A stretch of 64,000 bases of DNA from a virus (lineage: Duplodnaviria; Caudoviricetes): positions 4,978 to 68,977 of IMG/VR virus record IMGVR_UViG_2846178487_000001; one strand, 5' to 3'. This document shows, in pieces, positions 3 through 64,000 of the stretch. Under the pieces are notes generated by a model. That model was given only the letters and a program-made list of their open reading frames with translations, searched no databases and was not told where the DNA came from. Both the position numbers and the translations under genes were made by a program. How positions within the stretch are numbered: position 1 is the first letter of the stretch; each line of letters starts with the position of its first letter.

Positions 3-2738
3 GGCTGCACGAAATCAGTTGCCACACTTATGACAGATGGCAACGGGAATACGGATACGGTGGAGTTGAGAGCTTCTACATACTATGTAAAAGAAATCGA
101 AGCTCCAAAAGGATTCCAGTTAGATAACAACGTCTATACCCTTACGGTAAAGGCTGGTGAAACTTCCATATTGAAAGTCAGCGATACACCAAAAGTCACA
201 GACACTTTGGTTGAGCTTTTCAAGATTGATATGGAAACAGGAAAAGCAACCGCACAGGGTAACGCTTCTTTAGAGGGTGCGGAGTTCGTCTGGAAGTATT
301 ATGACGGTTATTACACAAAAGATAATCTTCCATCAGAACCAACACGCATATGGACGACAAAGACAAAAGCGGAAAAAGGCAGCGATAACACTATCCACTA
401 TATCACAAGATTGGCAGATTCTTATAAGGTATCTGGTGACAGCTTCTATACACAAAACGGTACTATCTGTTTACCGCTTGGTACTATCACTGTAGAAGAA
501 AAAGCTGCTCCAAACGGTTACTTGTTAGATGGTGCTTATATGCAAGCCGCTGGAAGTTCTGAACAGATAAAAGGCGTGTATGTGGCACAGATTACAGAAG
601 ATAGCGAACTTGCAGCATTAAGCGGCAGCAACCAGTATTCCGTATCGGACAAGATTATCCGTGGAGGTGTGAGAATCCAAAAGCGTGACCTTGAAACAAA
701 AGACACAAAACCACAAGGCGGTGCAACATTGAAAGATACTGCCTTTGAAATCATTTCCTTAAATGATAATGCGGTATTGGTAGATGGCAAATTATACAAC
801 AAAAATGAAACAGTCAAGACAATCCATACAGGCGTTGACGGTATCGCTACGACTGCCGCAGATACTTTACCTTATGGAAAATACCGCTTAGAAGAAAGCA
901 ACGCCCCAGAGGGATATTTGACGGACGGTGCAAAACCGATTGAGTTTGAAATCACAGAGAATGGAAAAATCGTTGACTTAACTGACGAAGCACATTCCAT
1001 CTACAATCAGATTAAACGTGGTGACTTGGAGGGTGTGAAAATCGGTGACGGTACTCATAAGCGACTTGCGAATGTTCCGTTCAGGATCACAAGCAAGACC
1101 ACAGGCGAAAGCCACATCATTGTGACGGACGCAAACGGTCAGTTCTCTACCGCTGCTGACTGGGTATCTCATACACAGAACACCAACGCTGGCGAAAACA
1201 GTGAGGACGGTATCTGGTTCGGTACTTCCACACCAGACGACAGCAAAGGTGCGTTGCTCTACGATACCTATACAATCGAGGAATTACGCTGTGATTCCAA
1301 CAAAGGAATGACACTGATTCCTGCTTTTGATGTGATAGTTTCAAGAAATAAGACTGTCATTCATTTGGGTACATTGACAGATGATTATGAACCAGAAATC
1401 TCTATCCATACTACCGCTGCTGATAAGGCAACAGGCGAAAAATCAATTGTCGCTGGTAAAAGCGTGACTATCGTTGATACCGTCACTTTAGACGGACTTA
1501 CAAAAGGTACGAAGTATCAACTAAAAGGCTGGCAGATGGTGAAGTCTGAAAACGCACAGCTTCTTATTGATGGTGAGCCTGTGGAAAGTGATTACACTTT
1601 CACTGCAAAAAAATCAGAGATGGAAGTTGAGGTTTCTTATACATTCAATGCTTCTGCTCTTGGTGGTAAAGATCTTGTAACTTTTGAGGAATTGTACGAT
1701 TTATCCAATCCAGACGAGCCTATCAAGGTGGCAGAACATAAGGACATTGAGGACGACGGGCAGACTGTGAGAATCGAGGAAAGAATCATCACCATTCATA
1801 CCACAGCTACCGACAAGGCAACAGGTGAAAAGATGATTGTTGCTGGTAAAGAGGTGACTGTCATTGATACGGTCACTTTAGATGGCTTGGAAAAAGGAAC
1901 AAAATATCAGCTTAAAGGTTGGGAAATGGTGAAATCTGAAAATGCAGAGCTTCTTGTGGGTGGTGAGCGTGTGGAAAATGACCTTGCTTTCACCGCTACG
2001 GACACGAAGATGGAAGTTCAGATTACATTTACATTCAATGCCAGCGAGCTTGCAGGCAAGGAGCTTGTGACATTTGAGGAATTGTACGATTTATCCAATC
2101 CAGACGAGCCTACAAAGGTAGCAGAACATAAGGACATTGAGGACGACGGACAGACTGTGACAATCACAGAGCGTATCATTACCATGCATACAACCGCTAC
2201 CGACAAGGCAACAGGGAAAAAGACAATCGAAGCTGGTAAAGATGTGACTATCGTTGATACCGTCACTTTAGATGGACTTGAAAAAGGTGTGAAATATCAG
2301 CTCAAAGGCTGGGAAATGGTGAAGTCTGAAAATGCAGAGCTTATCATAAATGGTAAACGTGTAGAAAATGACCTTACTTTCACCGCTACCGATACGAAGA
2401 TGGAAGTTCAGAGTGCATTTACATTCAATGCCAGTGAGCTTGCAGGAAAAGAGCTTGTCACATTTGAGGAATTATATGACGTGACAAATCCAGACGAGCC
2501 TATCAAAGTAGCTGAACATAAGGACATCAAGGATAAGGGGCAGACGGTGACAGTCAAAGAAAAACCAGAATTCCCTGCCACATCAGAAGAACCCAGCACA
2601 CCAACAAGAACAGGCAATTCACCAAAGACAGGTGACAATACACCATTTGCCGCATTGTTCGCTATGATGGGGATTTCCGCTGCTGGTCTTATTTTTGCAG
2701 GATATAAGAGATTTCGCAAAGTAAAGAAAGTTAAATAA
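3..2738 (+). CDS. Sortase-anchored adhesin with SpaA/Cna-B-type and VaFE-type repeat domains (5' truncated by window)
   Basis: Frame open to window edge; YYVKEIEAPKGF, YRLEESNAPEGY pilin-type motifs; three ~130-aa repeats; SPKTG + hydrophobic helix + KRFRKVKKVK tail. Confidence 0.85.
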   Translation, partial: GCTKSVATLMTDGNGNTDTVELRASTYYVKEIEAPKGFQLDNNVYTLTVKAGETSILKVSDTPKVTDTLVELFKIDMETGKATAQGNASLEGAEFVWKYYDGYYTKDNLPSEPTRIWTTKTKAEKGSDNTIHYITRLADSYKVSGDSFYTQNGTICLPLGTITVEEKAAPNGYLLDGAYMQAAGSSEQIKGVYVAQITEDSELAALSGSNQYSVSDKIIRGGVRIQKRDLETKDTKPQGGATLKDTAFEIISLNDNAVLVDGKLYNKNETVKTIHTGVDGIATTAADTLPYGKYRLEESNAPEGYLTDGAKPIEFEITENGKIVDLTDEAHSIYNQIKRGDLEGVKIGDGTHKRLANVPFRITSKTTGESHIIVTDANGQFSTAADWVSHTQNTNAGENSEDGIWFGTSTPDDSKGALLYDTYTIEELRCDSNKGMTLIPAFDVIVSRNKTVIHLGTLTDDYEPEISIHTTAADKATGEKSIVAGKSVTIVDTVTLDGLTKGTKYQLKGWQMVKSENAQLLIDGEPVESDYTFTAKKSEMEVEVSYTFNASALGGKDLVTFEELYDLSNPDEPIKVAEHKDIEDDGQTVRIEERIITIHTTATDKATGEKMIVAGKEVTVIDTVTLDGLEKGTKYQLKGWEMVKSENAELLVGGERVENDLAFTATDTKMEVQITFTFNASELAGKELVTFEELYDLSNPDEPTKVAEHKDIEDDGQTVTITERIITMHTTATDKATGKKTIEAGKDVTIVDTVTLDGLEKGVKYQLKGWEMVKSENAELIINGKRVENDLTFTATDTKMEVQSAFTFNASELAGKELVTFEELYDVTNPDEPIKVAEHKDIKDKGQTVTVKEKPEFPATSEEPSTPTRTGNSPKTGDNTPFAALFAMMGISAAGLIFAGYKRFRKVKKVK
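1404..2573 (+). repeat. Three 390-bp coding repeats (VaFE-type domains)
   Basis: Units begin at 1404, 1794, 2184 (I/M-H-T-T-A-x-D-K-A-T-G). Confidence 0.85.
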
Positions 2739-20698: not shown

Positions 20699-20842
20699 AT
20701 GGCAAATGACGCAAAGGTAGTTTGCAAGAATGTTTTTAAAAATTGTGATAAAGTGGCGTTTACAAAAGCATTTACTCTAAAATGGATAGAGTTGATAAAT
20801 CAATATGAAAAAAATAAAGGAAAGGCAACTCCTGCCAGATGA
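20699..20842 (+). CDS. 47-aa basic protein upstream of recombinase, candidate RDF (not in ORF track)
   Basis: MANDAKVVCKNVFKNCDKVAFTKAFTLKWIELINQYEKNKGKATPAR; RBS gaggtgg. Confidence 0.6.
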   Translation: MANDAKVVCKNVFKNCDKVAFTKAFTLKWIELINQYEKNKGKATPAR

Positions 20843-20923: not shown

Positions 20924-22492
20924 ATGATAGAATCAAAATCAAGAGTTGCTATTTATTGCCGCTTATCAGAGGAAGATAGAAACAAACAATCAGAAACAGA
21001 CGACAGTAACAGTATTCAAAATCAAAAGTCAATGTTACTTCAATACTCATTAGAGCATGGTTGGGAAGTCTACAACATATACAGTGATGATGATTACACT
21101 GGTTCTGACAGACGACGACCAGAATTTAACAGGTTGTTGGAGGACGCAAAGAATCGCAAATTTGATATTGTCCTTTGTAAGACACAATCCAGATTTACCA
21201 GAGAACTAGAATTAGTGGAAAAATATATCCACGGTCTTTTTCCTATTTGGGGTATTCGCTTCATCAGTATTGTTGATAATGCAGATACAGCTAATAAGGG
21301 AAATAAGAAATCAAGACAGATTAACGGTCTGGTGAATGAGTGGTACTTGGAGGATATGTCAGAGAACATTAAAAGTGTTCTCACTGACAGAAGAAAGAAC
21401 GGACACCATATCGGTGCTTTTGCCCTGTATGGTTACAAAAAAGACCCTGACGTAAAAGGGCATTTGATTATTGATGAAGAAGCTGCGGAAGTTGTCAGAG
21501 AAGTTTTTACACTGTTTTCACAGGGATATGGAAAGACCGCCATTGCCCGTATGCTGAATGACAGAGGAATACCAAACCCTACGGAATACAAACGACTTCA
21601 TGGCTTGCGTTACAAGCAGCCTAAAACGAAAAACAGTACCCTATGGAAATATTTTGCCATATCAGATATGTTGGTGAATGAAATCTATATCGGGAATATG
21701 GTTCAAGGGAAATATGGCAGCGTTTCTTATAAGACAAAGCAAAACAAACCCAGACCAAAAGACGAGTGGTACAGAGTTGAGGGTACACATGAACCGATTA
21801 TTGACCGTGAGTTATGGGATAGGGTTCAAGCATTGGTAGCTCAAAAGGCAAAACCTTTCACGGTTGGCACAATCGGCTTATTTGCCAGAAAAGCTCGCTG
21901 TATGAATTGTGGTTATACAATGCGTTCATCAAAGAATCGTGGTAAGCATTATTTACAATGTTCTAACCGCCATGTAGCAAAGGACGCTTGTATAGGTTCT
22001 TTCATTTCAGTAGACAAATTGGAAAAAGCTGTGATTGACGAACTTAATAAGTTATCCGCAGAATATCTGGATAAAGATGAGCTTGAACAAAATGTGCAAT
22101 TCAATAATGACTTGCGAGGTCAAAAAGAAGCTCTGGAAACGGAGATTGCTGCTTATCAAAAAAAGATTGCGGAATACACAAAAGGAATCCGTGAACTATA
22201 TTTAGATAAGGTAAAGGGTATTCTTTCCGAACTTGATTACTTGGATTTATCTAAAGACTTCTCAACACAAAAAGAAAGGCTCGAAAAACTGGTAATTGAT
22301 ACGCAGAAACAGCTTGATGTTATTGAAAGAAAAATGCTGATTGGCGATAACAGACGACAGTTAATCGAGCAATATACAAATCTTGAACACTTAGACAGGG
22401 AAACGGTTGAAAAGCTGATTGATTATGTATTGGTCGGTAAGAAAGACCCTGTAACTAAGGAAGTACCTATTGAAATACATTGGAATTTCTAA
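20924..22492 (+). CDS. Large serine recombinase of the ICE
   Basis: AIYCRLS catalytic motif, SRFTR, recombinase domain, CMNCG...C zinc ribbon, coiled coil. Confidence 0.96.
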   Translation: MIESKSRVAIYCRLSEEDRNKQSETDDSNSIQNQKSMLLQYSLEHGWEVYNIYSDDDYTGSDRRRPEFNRLLEDAKNRKFDIVLCKTQSRFTRELELVEKYIHGLFPIWGIRFISIVDNADTANKGNKKSRQINGLVNEWYLEDMSENIKSVLTDRRKNGHHIGAFALYGYKKDPDVKGHLIIDEEAAEVVREVFTLFSQGYGKTAIARMLNDRGIPNPTEYKRLHGLRYKQPKTKNSTLWKYFAISDMLVNEIYIGNMVQGKYGSVSYKTKQNKPRPKDEWYRVEGTHEPIIDRELWDRVQALVAQKAKPFTVGTIGLFARKARCMNCGYTMRSSKNRGKHYLQCSNRHVAKDACIGSFISVDKLEKAVIDELNKLSAEYLDKDELEQNVQFNNDLRGQKEALETEIAAYQKKIAEYTKGIRELYLDKVKGILSELDYLDLSKDFSTQKERLEKLVIDTQKQLDVIERKMLIGDNRRQLIEQYTNLEHLDRETVEKLIDYVLVGKKDPVTKEVPIEIHWNF

Positions 22493-22547
22493 AGTTCTCA
22501 TATCTGGCAGCTAGTATGCCAGATTATCGGGAACTATCTTTTAAAAC

Positions 22548-22600
22548 CTCAATGTTGTCTTTACACAATCGTACCATCTGCTGCAAGGTCTTCATGTAGA
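22548..22600. other. ICE/cotJC attachment junction
   Basis: cotJC reading (minus) EDLAA then diverges to DGTIV-stop instead of EQKAR; crossover inferred at GA, 22577-22578. Confidence 0.75.
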
Positions 22601-22791
22601 TCTGTGATAGGATCACCTTTTGATTGAAATGTTGTTGCGCTCCACGGTGTGCCGCTGGCTGCCTGAGGCCAAAGTGCTAACGTGTGGTCAACATAATATT
22701 GGTCGAATCCAGATTCCTTTAATTGTTCAGGTGTCAGGTCGCGGGTAAGCTGGTGCACAATGGCGCAGATCATCTCGAGATGGGCAAGTTC
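22577..22791 (-). pseudogene. cotJC: Internal fragment of spore-coat manganese-catalase gene cotJC
   Basis: ELAHLEMICAIVHQLTRDLTPEQLKESGFDQYYVDH...SKGDPITDLHEDLAA matches the CotJC/Mn-catalase middle (recalled B. subtilis TEEFAHLEM...KGDPIADLYEDIAAEEKAR); both ends missing. Confidence 0.9.
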
Positions 22792-22815
22792 GTGAGTCCA
22801 AAAATGTTGTCGCTA
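22775..22815. other. Prophage/cotJC attachment junction
   Basis: Expected DIGTEELAH reads F-W-T-H-ELAH; homology lost within 22789-22800, ~30 bp from integrase stop. Confidence 0.7.
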
Positions 22816-22827
22816 ATAGAAAAGCCC

Positions 22828-24384
22828 CTAAATACGCGGGATTCGGGGCTTGAGATTTAATGTAAAAGTGGGATTGTCTTTATCTCCATATTTATTTCTT
22901 TTGGTTTTAGTATATTCCACGCTCTCTAAAAGCATCTTAAGAGCCTTATTCCGGTCTTGAGCAGATAATTCCCAATAGCAGGAGAGAAGCTCCTTACAGG
23001 AAGGAATAAAGTTCTCAACATTTGTTATTTTTTCTTTTTCATATTCCAGATCCTTTTTCAGAACTTCAATGTGTGCTTCGGATTCCTTGATACGTTTCTG
23101 CAGTTCATGAGAACGTTCCAGGAAGATTTCTGTCGTGTAGACTCCCTGTTCCAGCAGATCATACAAGTTTCCGTTTTGCTTCAATAACACATCATGATTG
23201 CTAATAGCGGAAGAGAGGAGTTGTTCTTTTTCCGGAACTTTGTTCTCAACTTCTAGTGTCGGATCCAACTGGTATCCGGCTACCCAGTCAGACAGCGCCT
23301 GTATGACCTCACGTTCCACCAAATCGAGTGCAGAGCCAATGGTGGGACAATTCCTGGTATTACACTTTAAAACGTCATATGGAGCACCTCCGGGTGTTTT
23401 AGAGGCTGGTCTTCGCATCATCTTCTTACCGCAGCAGGAGCAGACAACAATGCCGGCAAGCGGATTTTTGATTCCGTAGGATTCCGGGAGCTTGTGAGAG
23501 TTCTTTCCAAGATGTGTCTGAGCTTCCAGAAATACATCATGGTCAATTAATCGTGGCTGCAGTCCCGGAGCAGTGAAATCATAATCACTGTGGGGACGTA
23601 CTTTACTGACTGAGCCATTCTGGACCTGTTTCACAATTTTTCTTCGTCCAATACCAACTCTCTGGTCGTTGACAATGTTTCTTAGGATTCCCATGATACT
23701 ACATTCTGTCCAGGTGTCCCCATTCCTTGGCTTGACTCCCCGGTTATCCAGATATCTGCAGATGTTGGTGATGCCAATCCGATCAGGACCGGTGTAGAGC
23801 TGAAAGATAAGTTTGACGACCGGAGCTTCTTCTGGATCCGGTGCAAGTACCCAGCCACGGGCATGCTCCAACTTCACTCTCTGCCAACCGTAAGGTGCCT
23901 TATTGAATGGCCATTTACCTTCTTTGACAGCAGCAGTCACACCGGCACGCATTCGGCGTCGGATTGTCTTATATTCCCGCCGGCTCATGAAAAGTCCAAA
24001 CTCGAAATACTCTTCATCGAATTCATTGTTCGGATTGTATGTTTTGGCCGGAGTTACAATCTGGGTGCCGGAATACTGGAATGCCCGTTGAACAATTCCC
24101 TGATCAATGGTATCACCTCTGGCCAGACGTTCGACCTCCATGACAACAACACCTTTCCAGCGTCCGGCTTCCACTTCTGATAAGAGTCTTTGCATCTCCG
24201 GCCTTGCAGAAATAGACTCGCCGGAGACGACCTCACGGTAGATACCGCCAATAGATAAGTTCATGCGCTTGGCGAGGTCAAGTAAAATCTGTTCATGCCG
24301 TTCCAGGACATCAACGCCCATAGCTTCCAGTGAGGCATCACTTCGGGATTTCCGGAGATAGATAAGATATTCTTCGTATTGCAT
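22828..24384 (-). CDS. Large serine integrase of the prophage (518 aa from ATG 24384)
   Basis: YLIYLRKSRSD, ERLARGD, CSCCG...C zinc ribbon; RBS aaggaagg before MQYEE. Confidence 0.95.
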   Translation of the reverse strand: MQYEEYLIYLRKSRSDASLEAMGVDVLERHEQILLDLAKRMNLSIGGIYREVVSGESISARPEMQRLLSEVEAGRWKGVVVMEVERLARGDTIDQGIVQRAFQYSGTQIVTPAKTYNPNNEFDEEYFEFGLFMSRREYKTIRRRMRAGVTAAVKEGKWPFNKAPYGWQRVKLEHARGWVLAPDPEEAPVVKLIFQLYTGPDRIGITNICRYLDNRGVKPRNGDTWTECSIMGILRNIVNDQRVGIGRRKIVKQVQNGSVSKVRPHSDYDFTAPGLQPRLIDHDVFLEAQTHLGKNSHKLPESYGIKNPLAGIVVCSCCGKKMMRRPASKTPGGAPYDVLKCNTRNCPTIGSALDLVEREVIQALSDWVAGYQLDPTLEVENKVPEKEQLLSSAISNHDVLLKQNGNLYDLLEQGVYTTEIFLERSHELQKRIKESEAHIEVLKKDLEYEKEKITNVENFIPSCKELLSCYWELSAQDRNKALKMLLESVEYTKTKRNKYGDKDNPTFTLNLKPRIPRI

Positions 24385-24408
24385 ATGTATCACCTTCCTT
24401 AGTATATA

Positions 24409-24424
24409 TGCGCGACGTCGCACA
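24409..24424. promoter_or_regulatory. 16-bp palindrome upstream of integrase RBS
   Basis: TGTGCGACGTCGCGCA on minus strand; 14/16 identical to 63218-63233. Confidence 0.5.
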
Positions 24425-24470
24425 AAAATGGGTATAAAAATAACAGCCAAGCACAGAACAACAGTTCCGC

Positions 24471-24499
24471 TTGCAAGACTGCTCCGAAGATGATACAAT
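24471..24499 (+). promoter_or_regulatory. sigma-A promoter, antisense to integrase leader
   Basis: TTGCAA(24471)-17-TACAAT(24494). Confidence 0.65.
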
Positions 24500-24505
24500 A
24501 TGACT

Positions 24506-24578
24506 TGAACAATCAGATATAGTATATCTTCGGATATGCGAGCCACCCTGAGCCAACGGGGTGGCGATTTCTTTTTTT
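24506..24578 (+). ncRNA. Candidate ~70-nt antisense sRNA
   Basis: Promoter above plus terminator gccaccct/ggggtggc and T7 tract on + strand; no ORF. Confidence 0.5.
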
Positions 24579-25053
24579 ATTCAGCTTTTGTCAATTTTAC
24601 TTTCGTAGTTGTACCGGCCATAGAGACTTGATAGGAAAGTTCTTTATCTGCATCAGAGTATGAGAAGTCTTTTGTATCATCAGTTGATGCAAGCATAGCA
24701 TTATCAGTCTGCTCTTTATTTCTATCAGATGTCCAAGTGTAGTCAGCTGAGTACTCTGTTGGAGCGGTATAGGTTCCTACCCAGTAGATAGAAGTCGTGT
24801 CACCGTTATCAGATACCCAATTGACAGTAATTGTATCGTCGGCAATAACAGCCTCCATCCAGGAACCGTCATTATCTTCTGATTTCCATGTCCCAGCTAA
24901 ATCAACAGGTGCTTTTTCCTCTTCTTTTTTTGTTTCCTGTGTAGTTTCGTTTTGTTTGGAATCAGATTTATCAGATGAACTTCCGCCTCCACATGCAGAC
25001 AATGACAGCGCCATTGTTCCGGCAATTAATAATGCTACAATTCTTTTCTTCAT
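24577..25053 (-). CDS. Prophage lipoprotein (superinfection-exclusion position)
   Basis: MKKR + hydrophobic stretch + lipobox LSAC, Ser/Lys linker, beta-rich domain. Confidence 0.8.
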   Translation of the reverse strand: MKKRIVALLIAGTMALSLSACGGGSSSDKSDSKQNETTQETKKEEEKAPVDLAGTWKSEDNDGSWMEAVIADDTITVNWVSDNGDTTSIYWVGTYTAPTEYSADYTWTSDRNKEQTDNAMLASTDDTKDFSYSDADKELSYQVSMAGTTTKVKLTKAE

Positions 25054-28485: not shown

Positions 28486-28592
28486 AATTAATCATTCCTT
28501 TCACTATTTGATAGGACGATTATACCAGAAAACTGCAACAAGTACAAACCGTACCACATAACATGAAATAAGAAACACAGGAGGGCAGGAAG

Positions 28593-28748
28593 ATGATTGT
28601 AGAGACAATAACCAACAATGGCTGTACCTGCCATATCTCAGACGATGCGTACCGGGATAAGACCCCGGAAGAAGTGAGCCGGATTGTCCGGAACTTCTCG
28701 GATTTCATTGTTGGGAGATTAAAGGACTTAAAGGAGAAAACCGCTTAG
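28593..28748 (+). CDS. 51-aa hypothetical phage protein (not in ORF track)
   Basis: MIVETITNNGCTCHISDDAYRDKTPEEV; RBS aggagg. Confidence 0.6.
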   Translation: MIVETITNNGCTCHISDDAYRDKTPEEVSRIVRNFSDFIVGRLKDLKEKTA

Positions 28749-28771
28749 GCGGTAGAAAGGAGGACAAGCCC

Positions 28772-63217: not shown

Positions 63218-63233
63218 TGTGCGATGTCGCACA
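63218..63233. promoter_or_regulatory. 16-bp palindrome upstream of endolysin RBS
   Basis: TGTGCGATGTCGCACA directly before ggaaggag. Confidence 0.5.
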
Positions 63234-63247
63234 GGAAGGAGAAGAGT

Positions 63248-64000
63248 ATGAACATTATCGAAACAAATCTTAAATTCGGAGCATTATCCACACGTAAATC
63301 AACCAAGAGAGCAATTCTGCATCATGCGGAAGCTTCTAAGTGTACTGCAGAGGATATCCACCGCTGGCACAAACAGAATGGATGGTCCGGTGCTGGTTAT
63401 CATTTTCTGGTCCGCAAGGATGGAACCATCTACAGACTCCGGCCAGAAAACGCAGTCGGTTCCCATGCAAAGGGTAGCAATTCAGACAGTATCGGAATCT
63501 GCTTTGAGGGGTCTTACATGACGGAGACCATGCCACAGGCACAGATCAACGCCGGCCGAGAGTTGTTAGGCTACCTGAAAGGCAAGTATGGATTCAGTAA
63601 GGTCCAGGCTCACAGAGATGTATGCTCTACCAATTGCCCGGGCACGAATTTCCCGTTCACGGAAATCGCCGGAGCAACTGCAACTGCATCAGCGCCGACT
63701 ACAACTCCAGCACCAACACCAACACCGGCTCCAAGTGGACCATCTTACCGAGCAGGAACAGTATACACTTTACTGGCTGATCACCTTAGAGTACGTACCG
63801 GTCCGGGAACAGGATATGCGACCAAGTCACGCAAGCAACTGACAGTCAATGCCAGGGGACATGCTTACAGCAACGGCACACTCAAGAAAGGTACTCGTGT
63901 AACCTGCAAGGACGTCCGCAAGGTCGGTAGTGACATCTGGATTAAGATTCCAAGTGGTTGGATTGCTGCATATTATGGCGGAAAAAACTATGTAGGATAG
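63248..64000 (+). CDS. Endolysin: Amidase_2 + Pro/Thr linker + SH3-like domain
   Basis: ILHHA, GYHFLV, VGSHAKG, IGICFEG, HRDVCSTNCPG; LRVRTGPGTGY; stop at 63998-64000. Confidence 0.93.
   Translation: MNIIETNLKFGALSTRKSTKRAILHHAEASKCTAEDIHRWHKQNGWSGAGYHFLVRKDGTIYRLRPENAVGSHAKGSNSDSIGICFEGSYMTETMPQAQINAGRELLGYLKGKYGFSKVQAHRDVCSTNCPGTNFPFTEIAGATATASAPTTTPAPTPTPAPSGPSYRAGTVYTLLADHLRVRTGPGTGYATKSRKQLTVNARGHAYSNGTLKKGTRVTCKDVRKVGSDIWIKIPSGWIAAYYGGKNYVG

Follow-up and report, generated by a model that had tools for sequence, protein, structure and literature searches.

Skin in sigK, SPbeta in spsM and similar elements excise in the mother cell, whereby the sporulation genes that they interrupt are restored. 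Such intervening elements have been established for sigK, spsM, spoVFB, spoVR, gerE and yabG, and all of those tested were found to excise in sporulation (PMC5595907, PMC4191935, PMC10747680). In the case of SPbeta, the 58-aa protein SprB is expressed from a mother-cell promoter directly upstream of its gene and is also co-transcribed with upstream phage genes upon induction (PMC4191935). Among sporulation genes, cotJC was named as an integration target of phages and transposons (listed in bioRxiv 10.1101/2021.11.22.469490 with reference to Abe et al. 2013), and in C. difficile the phi027 prophage adjoins a CotJC homologue, from the loss of which the authors expect little phenotype (PMC11222575, PMC12122855). 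Here, a stretch of 64,000 nucleotides (the window; bases 4978-68977 of the 68,977-bp IMG/VR provirus record IMGVR_UViG_2846178487_000001, contig C1) was analysed, in which two elements with orthogonal large serine recombinases (LSRs), namely a complete integrative and conjugative element (ICE) and a complete temperate siphophage, are integrated in the single cotJC of a gut Lachnospiraceae host. The order on the chromosome is cotJA-cotJB-cotJC(1-65), phage, cotJC(65-135), ICE, cotJC(136-200). In the open-access literature no description was found of several fixed cotJC sites, of multiple occupancy or of an ICE and a phage in one sporulation gene, nor was a gut Lachnospiraceae case of cotJC integration. 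New in this work are the ICE partner, a replicate in a second host, the link to a cultured phage and a candidate for the excision partner of the phage recombinase (p51), which was obtained from module comparison.

One cotJC gene in three pieces

20924-22492, plus strand: LSR of the ICE, 522 aa, with Resolvase, Recombinase, Zn_ribbon_recom and DUF4368 domains; last gene of the ICE
22577-22580, no strand: right junction of the ICE, core TCTG, codons A135/E136; from the three-way comparison of left junction, right junction and empty attB
22581-22791, minus strand: internal cotJC piece, codons E65-A135; from the Pfam Mn_catalase match and the identity to the intact gene of genome G246
22788-22791, no strand: left junction of the phage, core GTTC, codons E65/L66; from the comparison of attL with the empty attB, the attR of loci L171 and L172 and the attP of phage DO134P1
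22828-24384, minus strand: LSR of the phage, 518 aa, SprA family; from Pfam domains and a PDB match

Located between the two recombinase genes is a minus-strand open frame of 83 codons (22564-22812), which reads ...WTH/ELAHLEM...HEDLAA/DGTIV-stop (slashes mark the breaks) and of which the central 70 codons are CotJC; the codons ahead of these (...WTH) derive from the phage and those behind them (DGTIV, stop) from the ICE. In Pfam, the internal piece scores 44.8 bits (cut-off 27, E 1e-11) against profile positions 64-150 of Mn_catalase PF05067. Comparison with the empty site of G246, a genome of the same species, served to place the junctions and revealed 211-215 bp of host-derived DNA, nothing else in the window coming from the host; this confirms the original prediction, made for this DNA before the present analysis, of a cotJC fragment of ~215 bp as the only host DNA. 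It had further been noted that both recombinase genes point at the fragment, and indeed the two LSR genes converge on it. Both flanking proteins possess the Resolvase, Recombinase and Zn_ribbon_recom domains that make up the LSR architecture and share ~20% identity with each other. The ICE junction was found 88 nt from the stop of the ICE recombinase gene and the phage junction 37 nt ahead of the stop codon of the phage recombinase gene, values close to the ~85 and ~30 bp estimated before; identity with attB ends after GTTC. The proposed vicinity of both breaks to metal-ligand motifs was likewise recovered, as the phage interrupts the first ExxH motif between E65 and L66 and the ICE resides between A135 and E136.

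The 3' piece, which was expected to the left of the window, was identified there as a second Mn_catalase match (profile positions 146-197; 34.6 bits, also above the curated cut-off of 27) at record C1 3872-4071, ~1 kb left of the window, on the same strand as the middle piece and adjoining the host genes glyA and that of a zinc-ribbon protein. Over its full length the 3.9-kb host flank is 99% identical to G246, the sole such match among 401 family genomes searched. G246 possesses one Mn_catalase-type gene only, an intact cotJC of 200 codons at the equivalent position, which is immediately preceded by cotJB and cotJA, i.e., a cotJA-cotJB-cotJC operon at the empty site. When the G246 region was compared to the record by BLAST, two blocks were obtained (host flank with 3' piece, and middle piece) which have 8 bp in common at the ICE core, and the middle piece showed 97.7% nucleotide identity to the intact cotJC. 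Joined by reference, the middle and 3' pieces yield 411 nt, that is 136 codons and the natural stop, free of internal stops and frameshifts, with 0 amino-acid differences and 3 nucleotide differences, all synonymous, as compared to the cotJC of G246; for these two pieces the in silico join thus bears out what had been anticipated.

Precise excision of the ICE would accordingly restore the open frame, both junctions being present in the record. For precise excision of the phage, the record provides the left junction, and the right junction comes from near-identical phages alone, as the last base of the record is that of the endolysin stop codon (window 64000) and the 5' piece of cotJC falls outside the record. 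Two independent assemblies, L171 (an ENA metagenome contig) and L172 (an IMG/VR record), contain the terminal part of a near-identical endolysin gene and, ~62 nt past its stop, the same GTTC core followed by cotJC sequence upstream of codon 65. Through these phage ends the 5' piece of this host is supported indirectly. Exact searches of IMG/VR for the ICE right junction and for the reconstructed attP of the phage (its excised form) gave no match. Taken together, the view of a cotJC in three pieces over >60 kb, interrupted by an ICE and an apparently intact phage, is supported. As the LSRs are unrelated and their cores differ, two independent precise excisions are needed for an intact cotJC, as had been predicted.

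The left-hand element: a Tn916-type ICE

1-22580, plus strand: right-hand 22.6 kb of a Tn916-family ICE; from Pfam content and the junctions against the empty site
20699-20842, plus strand: open reading frame (ORF) of 47 aa just upstream of the ICE LSR gene, conserved beside ICE-LSR homologues

The complete ICE extends over record C1 4072-27557 (23,486 bp) and begins ~0.9 kb left of the window. Its conjugation genes, as recognised by Pfam, encode FtsK_SpoIIIE, a Rep_trans relaxase, a VirB4-like AAA_10 protein, a Lysozyme_like and NlpC/P60 hydrolase and TcpC, and it also encodes an ABC transporter cargo and a Sigma70_r4 protein. The best named relative of its LSR is an annotated TndX with 30% identity over the full length, and by this comparison the ICE LSR is a distant relative of TndX. 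TndX of Tn5397 needs no directionality factor. At the A135/E136 site of other hosts, LSR homologues of 99%, 93% and 76% identity occupy the same convergent position; homologues at this cotJC site were identified in G032 (93%, element of ~26 kb), G409 (76%) and G435 (82%).

The 47-aa ORF is 72-89% identical beside the LSR homologues of L183 and L216 and 41% identical in L175 (G435), has no PHROG match, and could be an accessory factor of the TndX-like recombinase. In G435 (C241; L175:1-1320) the 82% homologue at the A135 site points away from the cotJC piece, which suggests an element of the Tn4451 kind whose first gene is the recombinase; the same contig carries cotJC cut at two further places.

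The right-hand element: a siphophage with an SprA-family recombinase

22792-64000, plus strand: siphovirus-like prophage, ~41.3 kb; from PHROGs content, with attR expected ~62 nt past the endolysin stop
63224-64000, plus strand: endolysin (amidase), last phage gene; its ORF ends at TAG 63998-64000

PHROGs matches of the prophage comprise an S24 repressor, a Sak4-like protein, helicase, primase, terminase, portal, minor and major head proteins and tape measure, to which holin-like genes and the endolysin as last gene are added. Its LSR matches the SPbeta SprA/YokA structures (PDB 9dxh/9dxd) over residues 7-498 with E 1e-42 and is 91% identical to the LSR of the isolated Dorea phage DO134P1 (OP172779.1), in which attP with the same GTTC core lies between the LSR and lysin genes. 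LSR homologues of 32-98% identity found at the E65 site are all co-directional and located just upstream of the distal cotJC piece.

A megablast of the structural half against isolated phages gave no match, and a literature search found no paper mentioning DO134P1. By tblastx, prophage and DO134P1 are well conserved in only two segments, i.e., the LSR with attP and window 28494-28770, other matches being weak; the two thus share the integrase/attP and p51 modules only, clearly a recombination unit exchanged between phages that are unrelated otherwise. Within the leader of the LSR gene (window 24385-24580), blocks were noted that are retained in LSR homologues of 45-92% identity and include an opposite-strand extended -10 (TGATACAAT) of sigma-A-like type facing a hairpin and T-run, suggestive of a small antisense RNA. 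A convincing mother-cell promoter was not found upstream of the phage LSR, where only the conserved blocks and the antisense sigma-A-like promoter were seen.

A candidate directionality factor with a putative cotJ-like promoter

28538-28565, plus strand: mother-cell-type promoter-like motif (AC, 17 nt, CATA..AT.) ahead of p51; from the strict motif with ribosome binding site (RBS) and ORF
28593-28748, plus strand: p51, 51 aa, candidate recombination directionality factor (RDF) of the phage LSR; from its linkage to the LSR

In DO134P1 a counterpart of p51 with ~92% identity is annotated as hypothetical protein. Relatives of p51 are encoded at 30 IMG/VR loci, six of which also carry the phage LSR, in full at five of them and truncated by the end of the locus at the sixth; most other p51 loci end at most ~7 kb to the LSR side of p51, so that LSR presence is not readable there, and L202 comprises 9 kb on this side with no LSR present. 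The identities of p51 and LSR run in parallel (98/98, 92/92 and 67-69/72, respectively). For p51 no PHROG match, no PDB sequence match and no sequence similarity to known RDFs was obtained. Its predicted fold consists of a hairpin and a long helix (pLDDT 77.5), with matches to SprB chains below significance.

The conserved p51 block opens exactly at the AC-N17-CATA motif, which is followed by the RBS and the start codon, and the DNA further upstream is unrelated between the phages. Six occurrences of the strict motif were found in the 69-kb record, of which the p51 copy alone has an RBS and an ORF behind it. With a weight matrix derived from 62 cotJ operon promoters, the p51 motif ranks 27 of 255,870 positions, whereby the higher-ranked sites, located inside genes or antisense to genes, were judged to be due to chance. 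In 64 of 77 relatives a single AC-N16/17-CATA match was found upstream of cotJA, the chance expectation being ~0.16 per 330-nt region, and the cotJ promoter consensus is CATA..aT(A/G). The cotJ promoter of G246 reads CATAATATGA and that of p51 reads CATAACATGA. p51 is put forward as a candidate directionality factor behind a mother-cell-type promoter-like motif. A counterpart in the ICE was not found, and no such motif was seen upstream of its LSR. Aside from this, the motif ~100-330 nt upstream of cotJA (L003-L082) yields a family-wide logo for a mother-cell-type promoter, usable to scan for other sporulation-controlled genes.

Recurrence of split cotJC genes

The IMG/VR record G450 carries the ICE LSR (99% identity), followed by cotJC codons 63-136 and a phage with an LSR 72% identical to that of the phage described here. 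At the nucleotide level its ICE end is nearly identical, its cotJC piece ~80% and its phage 60-70% identical; judged by these values, G450 represents a host of another species, in which the same two sites are occupied by the same ICE and by another phage.

For the frequency of such arrangements, 111 relatives of G246 were surveyed, 80 of which gave a cotJC match, and classes were read from the match table; in a separate scan of genome contigs the best 80 matches were all intact genes. A split copy only was found in ~31 genomes, an intact and a split copy in 3 and an intact copy only in ~42, meaning that cotJC is split in ~34 of ~78 relatives having it, or ~40%, and multiply split in ~10%. Two or more breaks in one cotJC copy are present in ~7-9 of the 111 relatives; multiply interrupted genes are hence not peculiar to cyanobacteria, from which they had been described as best known. 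G444 shows the same pair of break sites as found here, and in G026 the gene is in four pieces. Multiply split cotJC genes lie on single contigs in G409, G435 and G026, the small elements being fully spanned. The breaks cluster near G30/G31, near E64-L66 (the phage site), near A135/E136 (the ICE site), and near codons 113-125 and 170-185, and the same clustering was observed for 182 IMG/VR provirus stretches bordered by cotJC pieces. Each site has an LSR lineage of its own, and phages at the G30 site carry an LSR group different from that of phages at the E65 site. The split pieces are mostly without internal stops, and many interrupting elements among the relatives are reduced to 4-9 kb with the LSR kept.

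Proteins 95-99% identical to the middle piece display an ICE-type break only (P0002), a contiguous distal part (P0070) or other elements (P0003, P0005, P0008), these occupancy states being read from protein sequences alone. Other elements at the A135 site are among these states. In P0005 and P0008, which are 97% identical to the piece and apparently from the same species, the frames are interrupted behind REREIV and HYQRFGE, which would add two insertion sites within the second ExxH region.

Two further observations concern single loci. At the E65 site of cotJC in G049 (C18; L173:1700-5560) a mini-element of 3.9 kb resides, which encodes a Spo0A-like response regulator (1762-2568, minus strand), an S24 repressor, one more ORF and an LSR 24-29% identical to those described here; a paralogue of the sporulation master regulator inside a cotJC-intervening remnant is odd. 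In G056 (C11:1053-1645) two cotJC matches (1-123 and 114-197) overlap on the same strand and nothing is inserted between them, which looks like a frameshifted copy and not like the insertion of an element.

Conservation of the insertion sites

When information content was calculated over 76 intact cotJC genes in windows of 40 nt, internal peaks were obtained at codons 31-37, 64, 133-139 and 169-172. These maxima coincide with both the insertion sites and the metal-ligand motifs; the break sites thus fall on peaks of nucleotide conservation, by which target choice within cotJC is explained. cotJC is a general landing pad, whose most conserved 40-nt stretches, those of the metal ligands, serve as attB for several LSR lineages. 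The conservation peaks fit developmental excision and simple tolerance alike and do not tell the two apart. As the insertions are probably much younger than the divergences of the species, a pairwise dN/dS comparison of split and intact genes has no power.

Models for the excision of the two elements

Considering the above, a mixed model was arrived at, in which phage excision is coupled to sporulation and ICE excision is stochastic; it is held tentatively, its probability being set just short of one half. Herein, the phage would act like SPbeta in spsM, i.e., the SprA-family integrase would be made constitutively and excision would be triggered by the small partner p51, which would be read together with the early lytic genes or, in sporulation, from its own promoter. 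With a p51 promoter resembling that of cotJ, phage departure from the chromosome of the mother cell would coincide with cotJ expression. For the ICE, excision would take place no more often than the background frequency of its TndX-like recombinase allows. Intact CotJC would consequently arise only in those mother cells in which both excisions happen, and the forespore would keep both elements. Developmental excision in the mother cell may thus be argued for the phage, where the sequence offers support; for the ICE none was found.

Several points weigh against this model. Both elements look fully mobile, and therefore the retention of their recombinases needs no selection at the level of the host. 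The 5' piece of this very host lies beyond the end of the record, and CotJC homologues were reported to be dispensable for gross spore formation (PMC11222575, PMC12122855). Furthermore, the promoter motif is of low information, with 58 loose matches in the record, a second group of p51 proteins retains AC-N17-CATA without the downstream T, and no such motif was found upstream of either recombinase gene when the record was scanned. Finally, RDF-independence of the ICE LSR, as known for TndX, would be an extrapolation from 30% identity.

Some of these points are shared by an explanation in which cotJC is a tolerated landing pad and a silent gene: the sites are conserved, cotJC is not needed for growth, no excision is under developmental control, and spores would be made without CotJC for as long as no element is lost, be it by chance or upon its own induction. 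This is regarded as a serious possibility, at a probability somewhat below one half. That the break sites are peaks of nucleotide conservation is what the choice of a broad-host attB would lead one to expect, both elements are complete and self-sufficient, the ICE is without a sporulation signal, CotJC homologues were called dispensable (PMC11222575, PMC12122855), and all occupancy states exist among near-identical cotJC sequences (G246, which is empty, and P0002, P0070, P0003, P0005 and P0008), suggesting rapid gain and loss. However, in ~31 genomes the split copy is the sole cotJC and its pieces are mostly open and conserved, many elements are reduced to as little as 4-9 kb yet keep their LSR, as skin does, the p51 module has a cotJ-like promoter, and every tested element intervening in a sporulation gene excises in sporulation (PMC5595907, PMC4191935, PMC10747680).

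The arrangement itself might have been produced by the assembly, if phage-only and ICE-only haplotypes of one species had been joined through the shared piece of 211 bp. The record does derive from assembly, the bridge is short and single-occupancy forms exist in public data, but the same layout of ICE, piece and phage is present in G450, where host cotJC and phage both differ from those described here, multiply split cotJC genes reside on single contigs in G409, G435 and G026, and a mixed graph node would normally break a contig rather than extend it to 69 kb, so that a chimera is considered very improbable. Even less credence, next to none, is given to the idea that the middle piece is captured cargo of one element with an intact cotJC elsewhere in the host. 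Although the record covers only part of the host genome, piece and left host flank correspond to an uninterrupted stretch of G246, with the 8-bp overlap at the ICE core, cotJC is single in G246, and the related genomes G001, G003 and G004 have one copy each; an element-borne piece or a second intact copy, named in the original prediction as refuting it, was hence not what was found, the piece being in exact host register.

The mixed model of a sporulation-coupled phage and a stochastic ICE may be extended to a broader reading, according to which cotJC is a shared docking gene in gut Lachnospiraceae and relatives, where unrelated elements at fixed sites each couple their excision to the mother-cell programme. 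This generalisation is considered unlikely. If it were true, p51 with its cotJ promoter logic would be an example of such coupling and the rebuilding of cotJC a multi-input AND gate, and phages and conjugative elements would be set free from the terminal mother cell without cost to the germ line. If, on the other hand, there were no developmental excision, a large share of gut spore-formers would carry a chromosomally inactivated cotJC.

Comparison with known systems

So far, elements intervening in sporulation genes have been known as one per gene, mostly from Bacillus and a few clostridia. Here, a non-regulatory coat gene is occupied in ~4 of 10 genomes of cotJC-bearing species, at fixed sites and often by more than one element, which provides a system for asking about the convergence of unrelated elements on mother-cell excision and about the dependence of a gene on several independent excisions. 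Two orthogonal LSR/att pairs of defined core sequence become available as parts, as does a 51-aa candidate RDF for an SprA-family integrase with the cultured phage relative DO134P1.

The right-hand element resembles SPbeta in spsM of B. subtilis in that an intact temperate phage with an SprA-family integrase resides inside a spore-envelope gene expressed in the mother cell. The likeness extends to sprB and p51, both being early-region genes for proteins of ~50 aa with a mother-cell-type promoter, putative in the case of p51, directly upstream and placed for read-through upon induction, although SprB and p51 share no sequence similarity and no significant fold similarity. Unlike SPbeta, the target is cotJC, a second unrelated element resides in the same gene, and the system is known from sequence alone. 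Skin in sigK (SpoIVCA of B. subtilis; skinCd with CD1231/CD1234 of C. difficile) is likewise an LSR-bearing element interrupting a sporulation gene, and is matched by the LSR-retaining remnants of 4-9 kb in relatives of this locus; both elements described here are, in contrast to skin, complete and mobile and not remnants, and as cotJC, unlike sigK, encodes no regulator, excision would not gate the sporulation programme.

The left-hand element shares with Tn5397 of C. difficile, a Tn916 backbone with TndX, the Tn916-type conjugation module and an outward-pointing LSR with DUF4368 as last gene, and differs from it by an identity of only 30% to TndX, the fixed cotJC target, the ABC transporter cargo and the conserved 47-aa ORF before the LSR. 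Finally, the nifD, fdxN and hupL elements of heterocysts (XisA, XisF and XisC) likewise interrupt genes of a terminal cell type, sometimes several elements doing so. Both LSRs have sub-threshold NCBIfam matches to XisF, with scores far below the family cut-off. The heterocyst elements are different ones in a different phylum and are not conjugative or viral as are the ICE and the phage that share cotJC.

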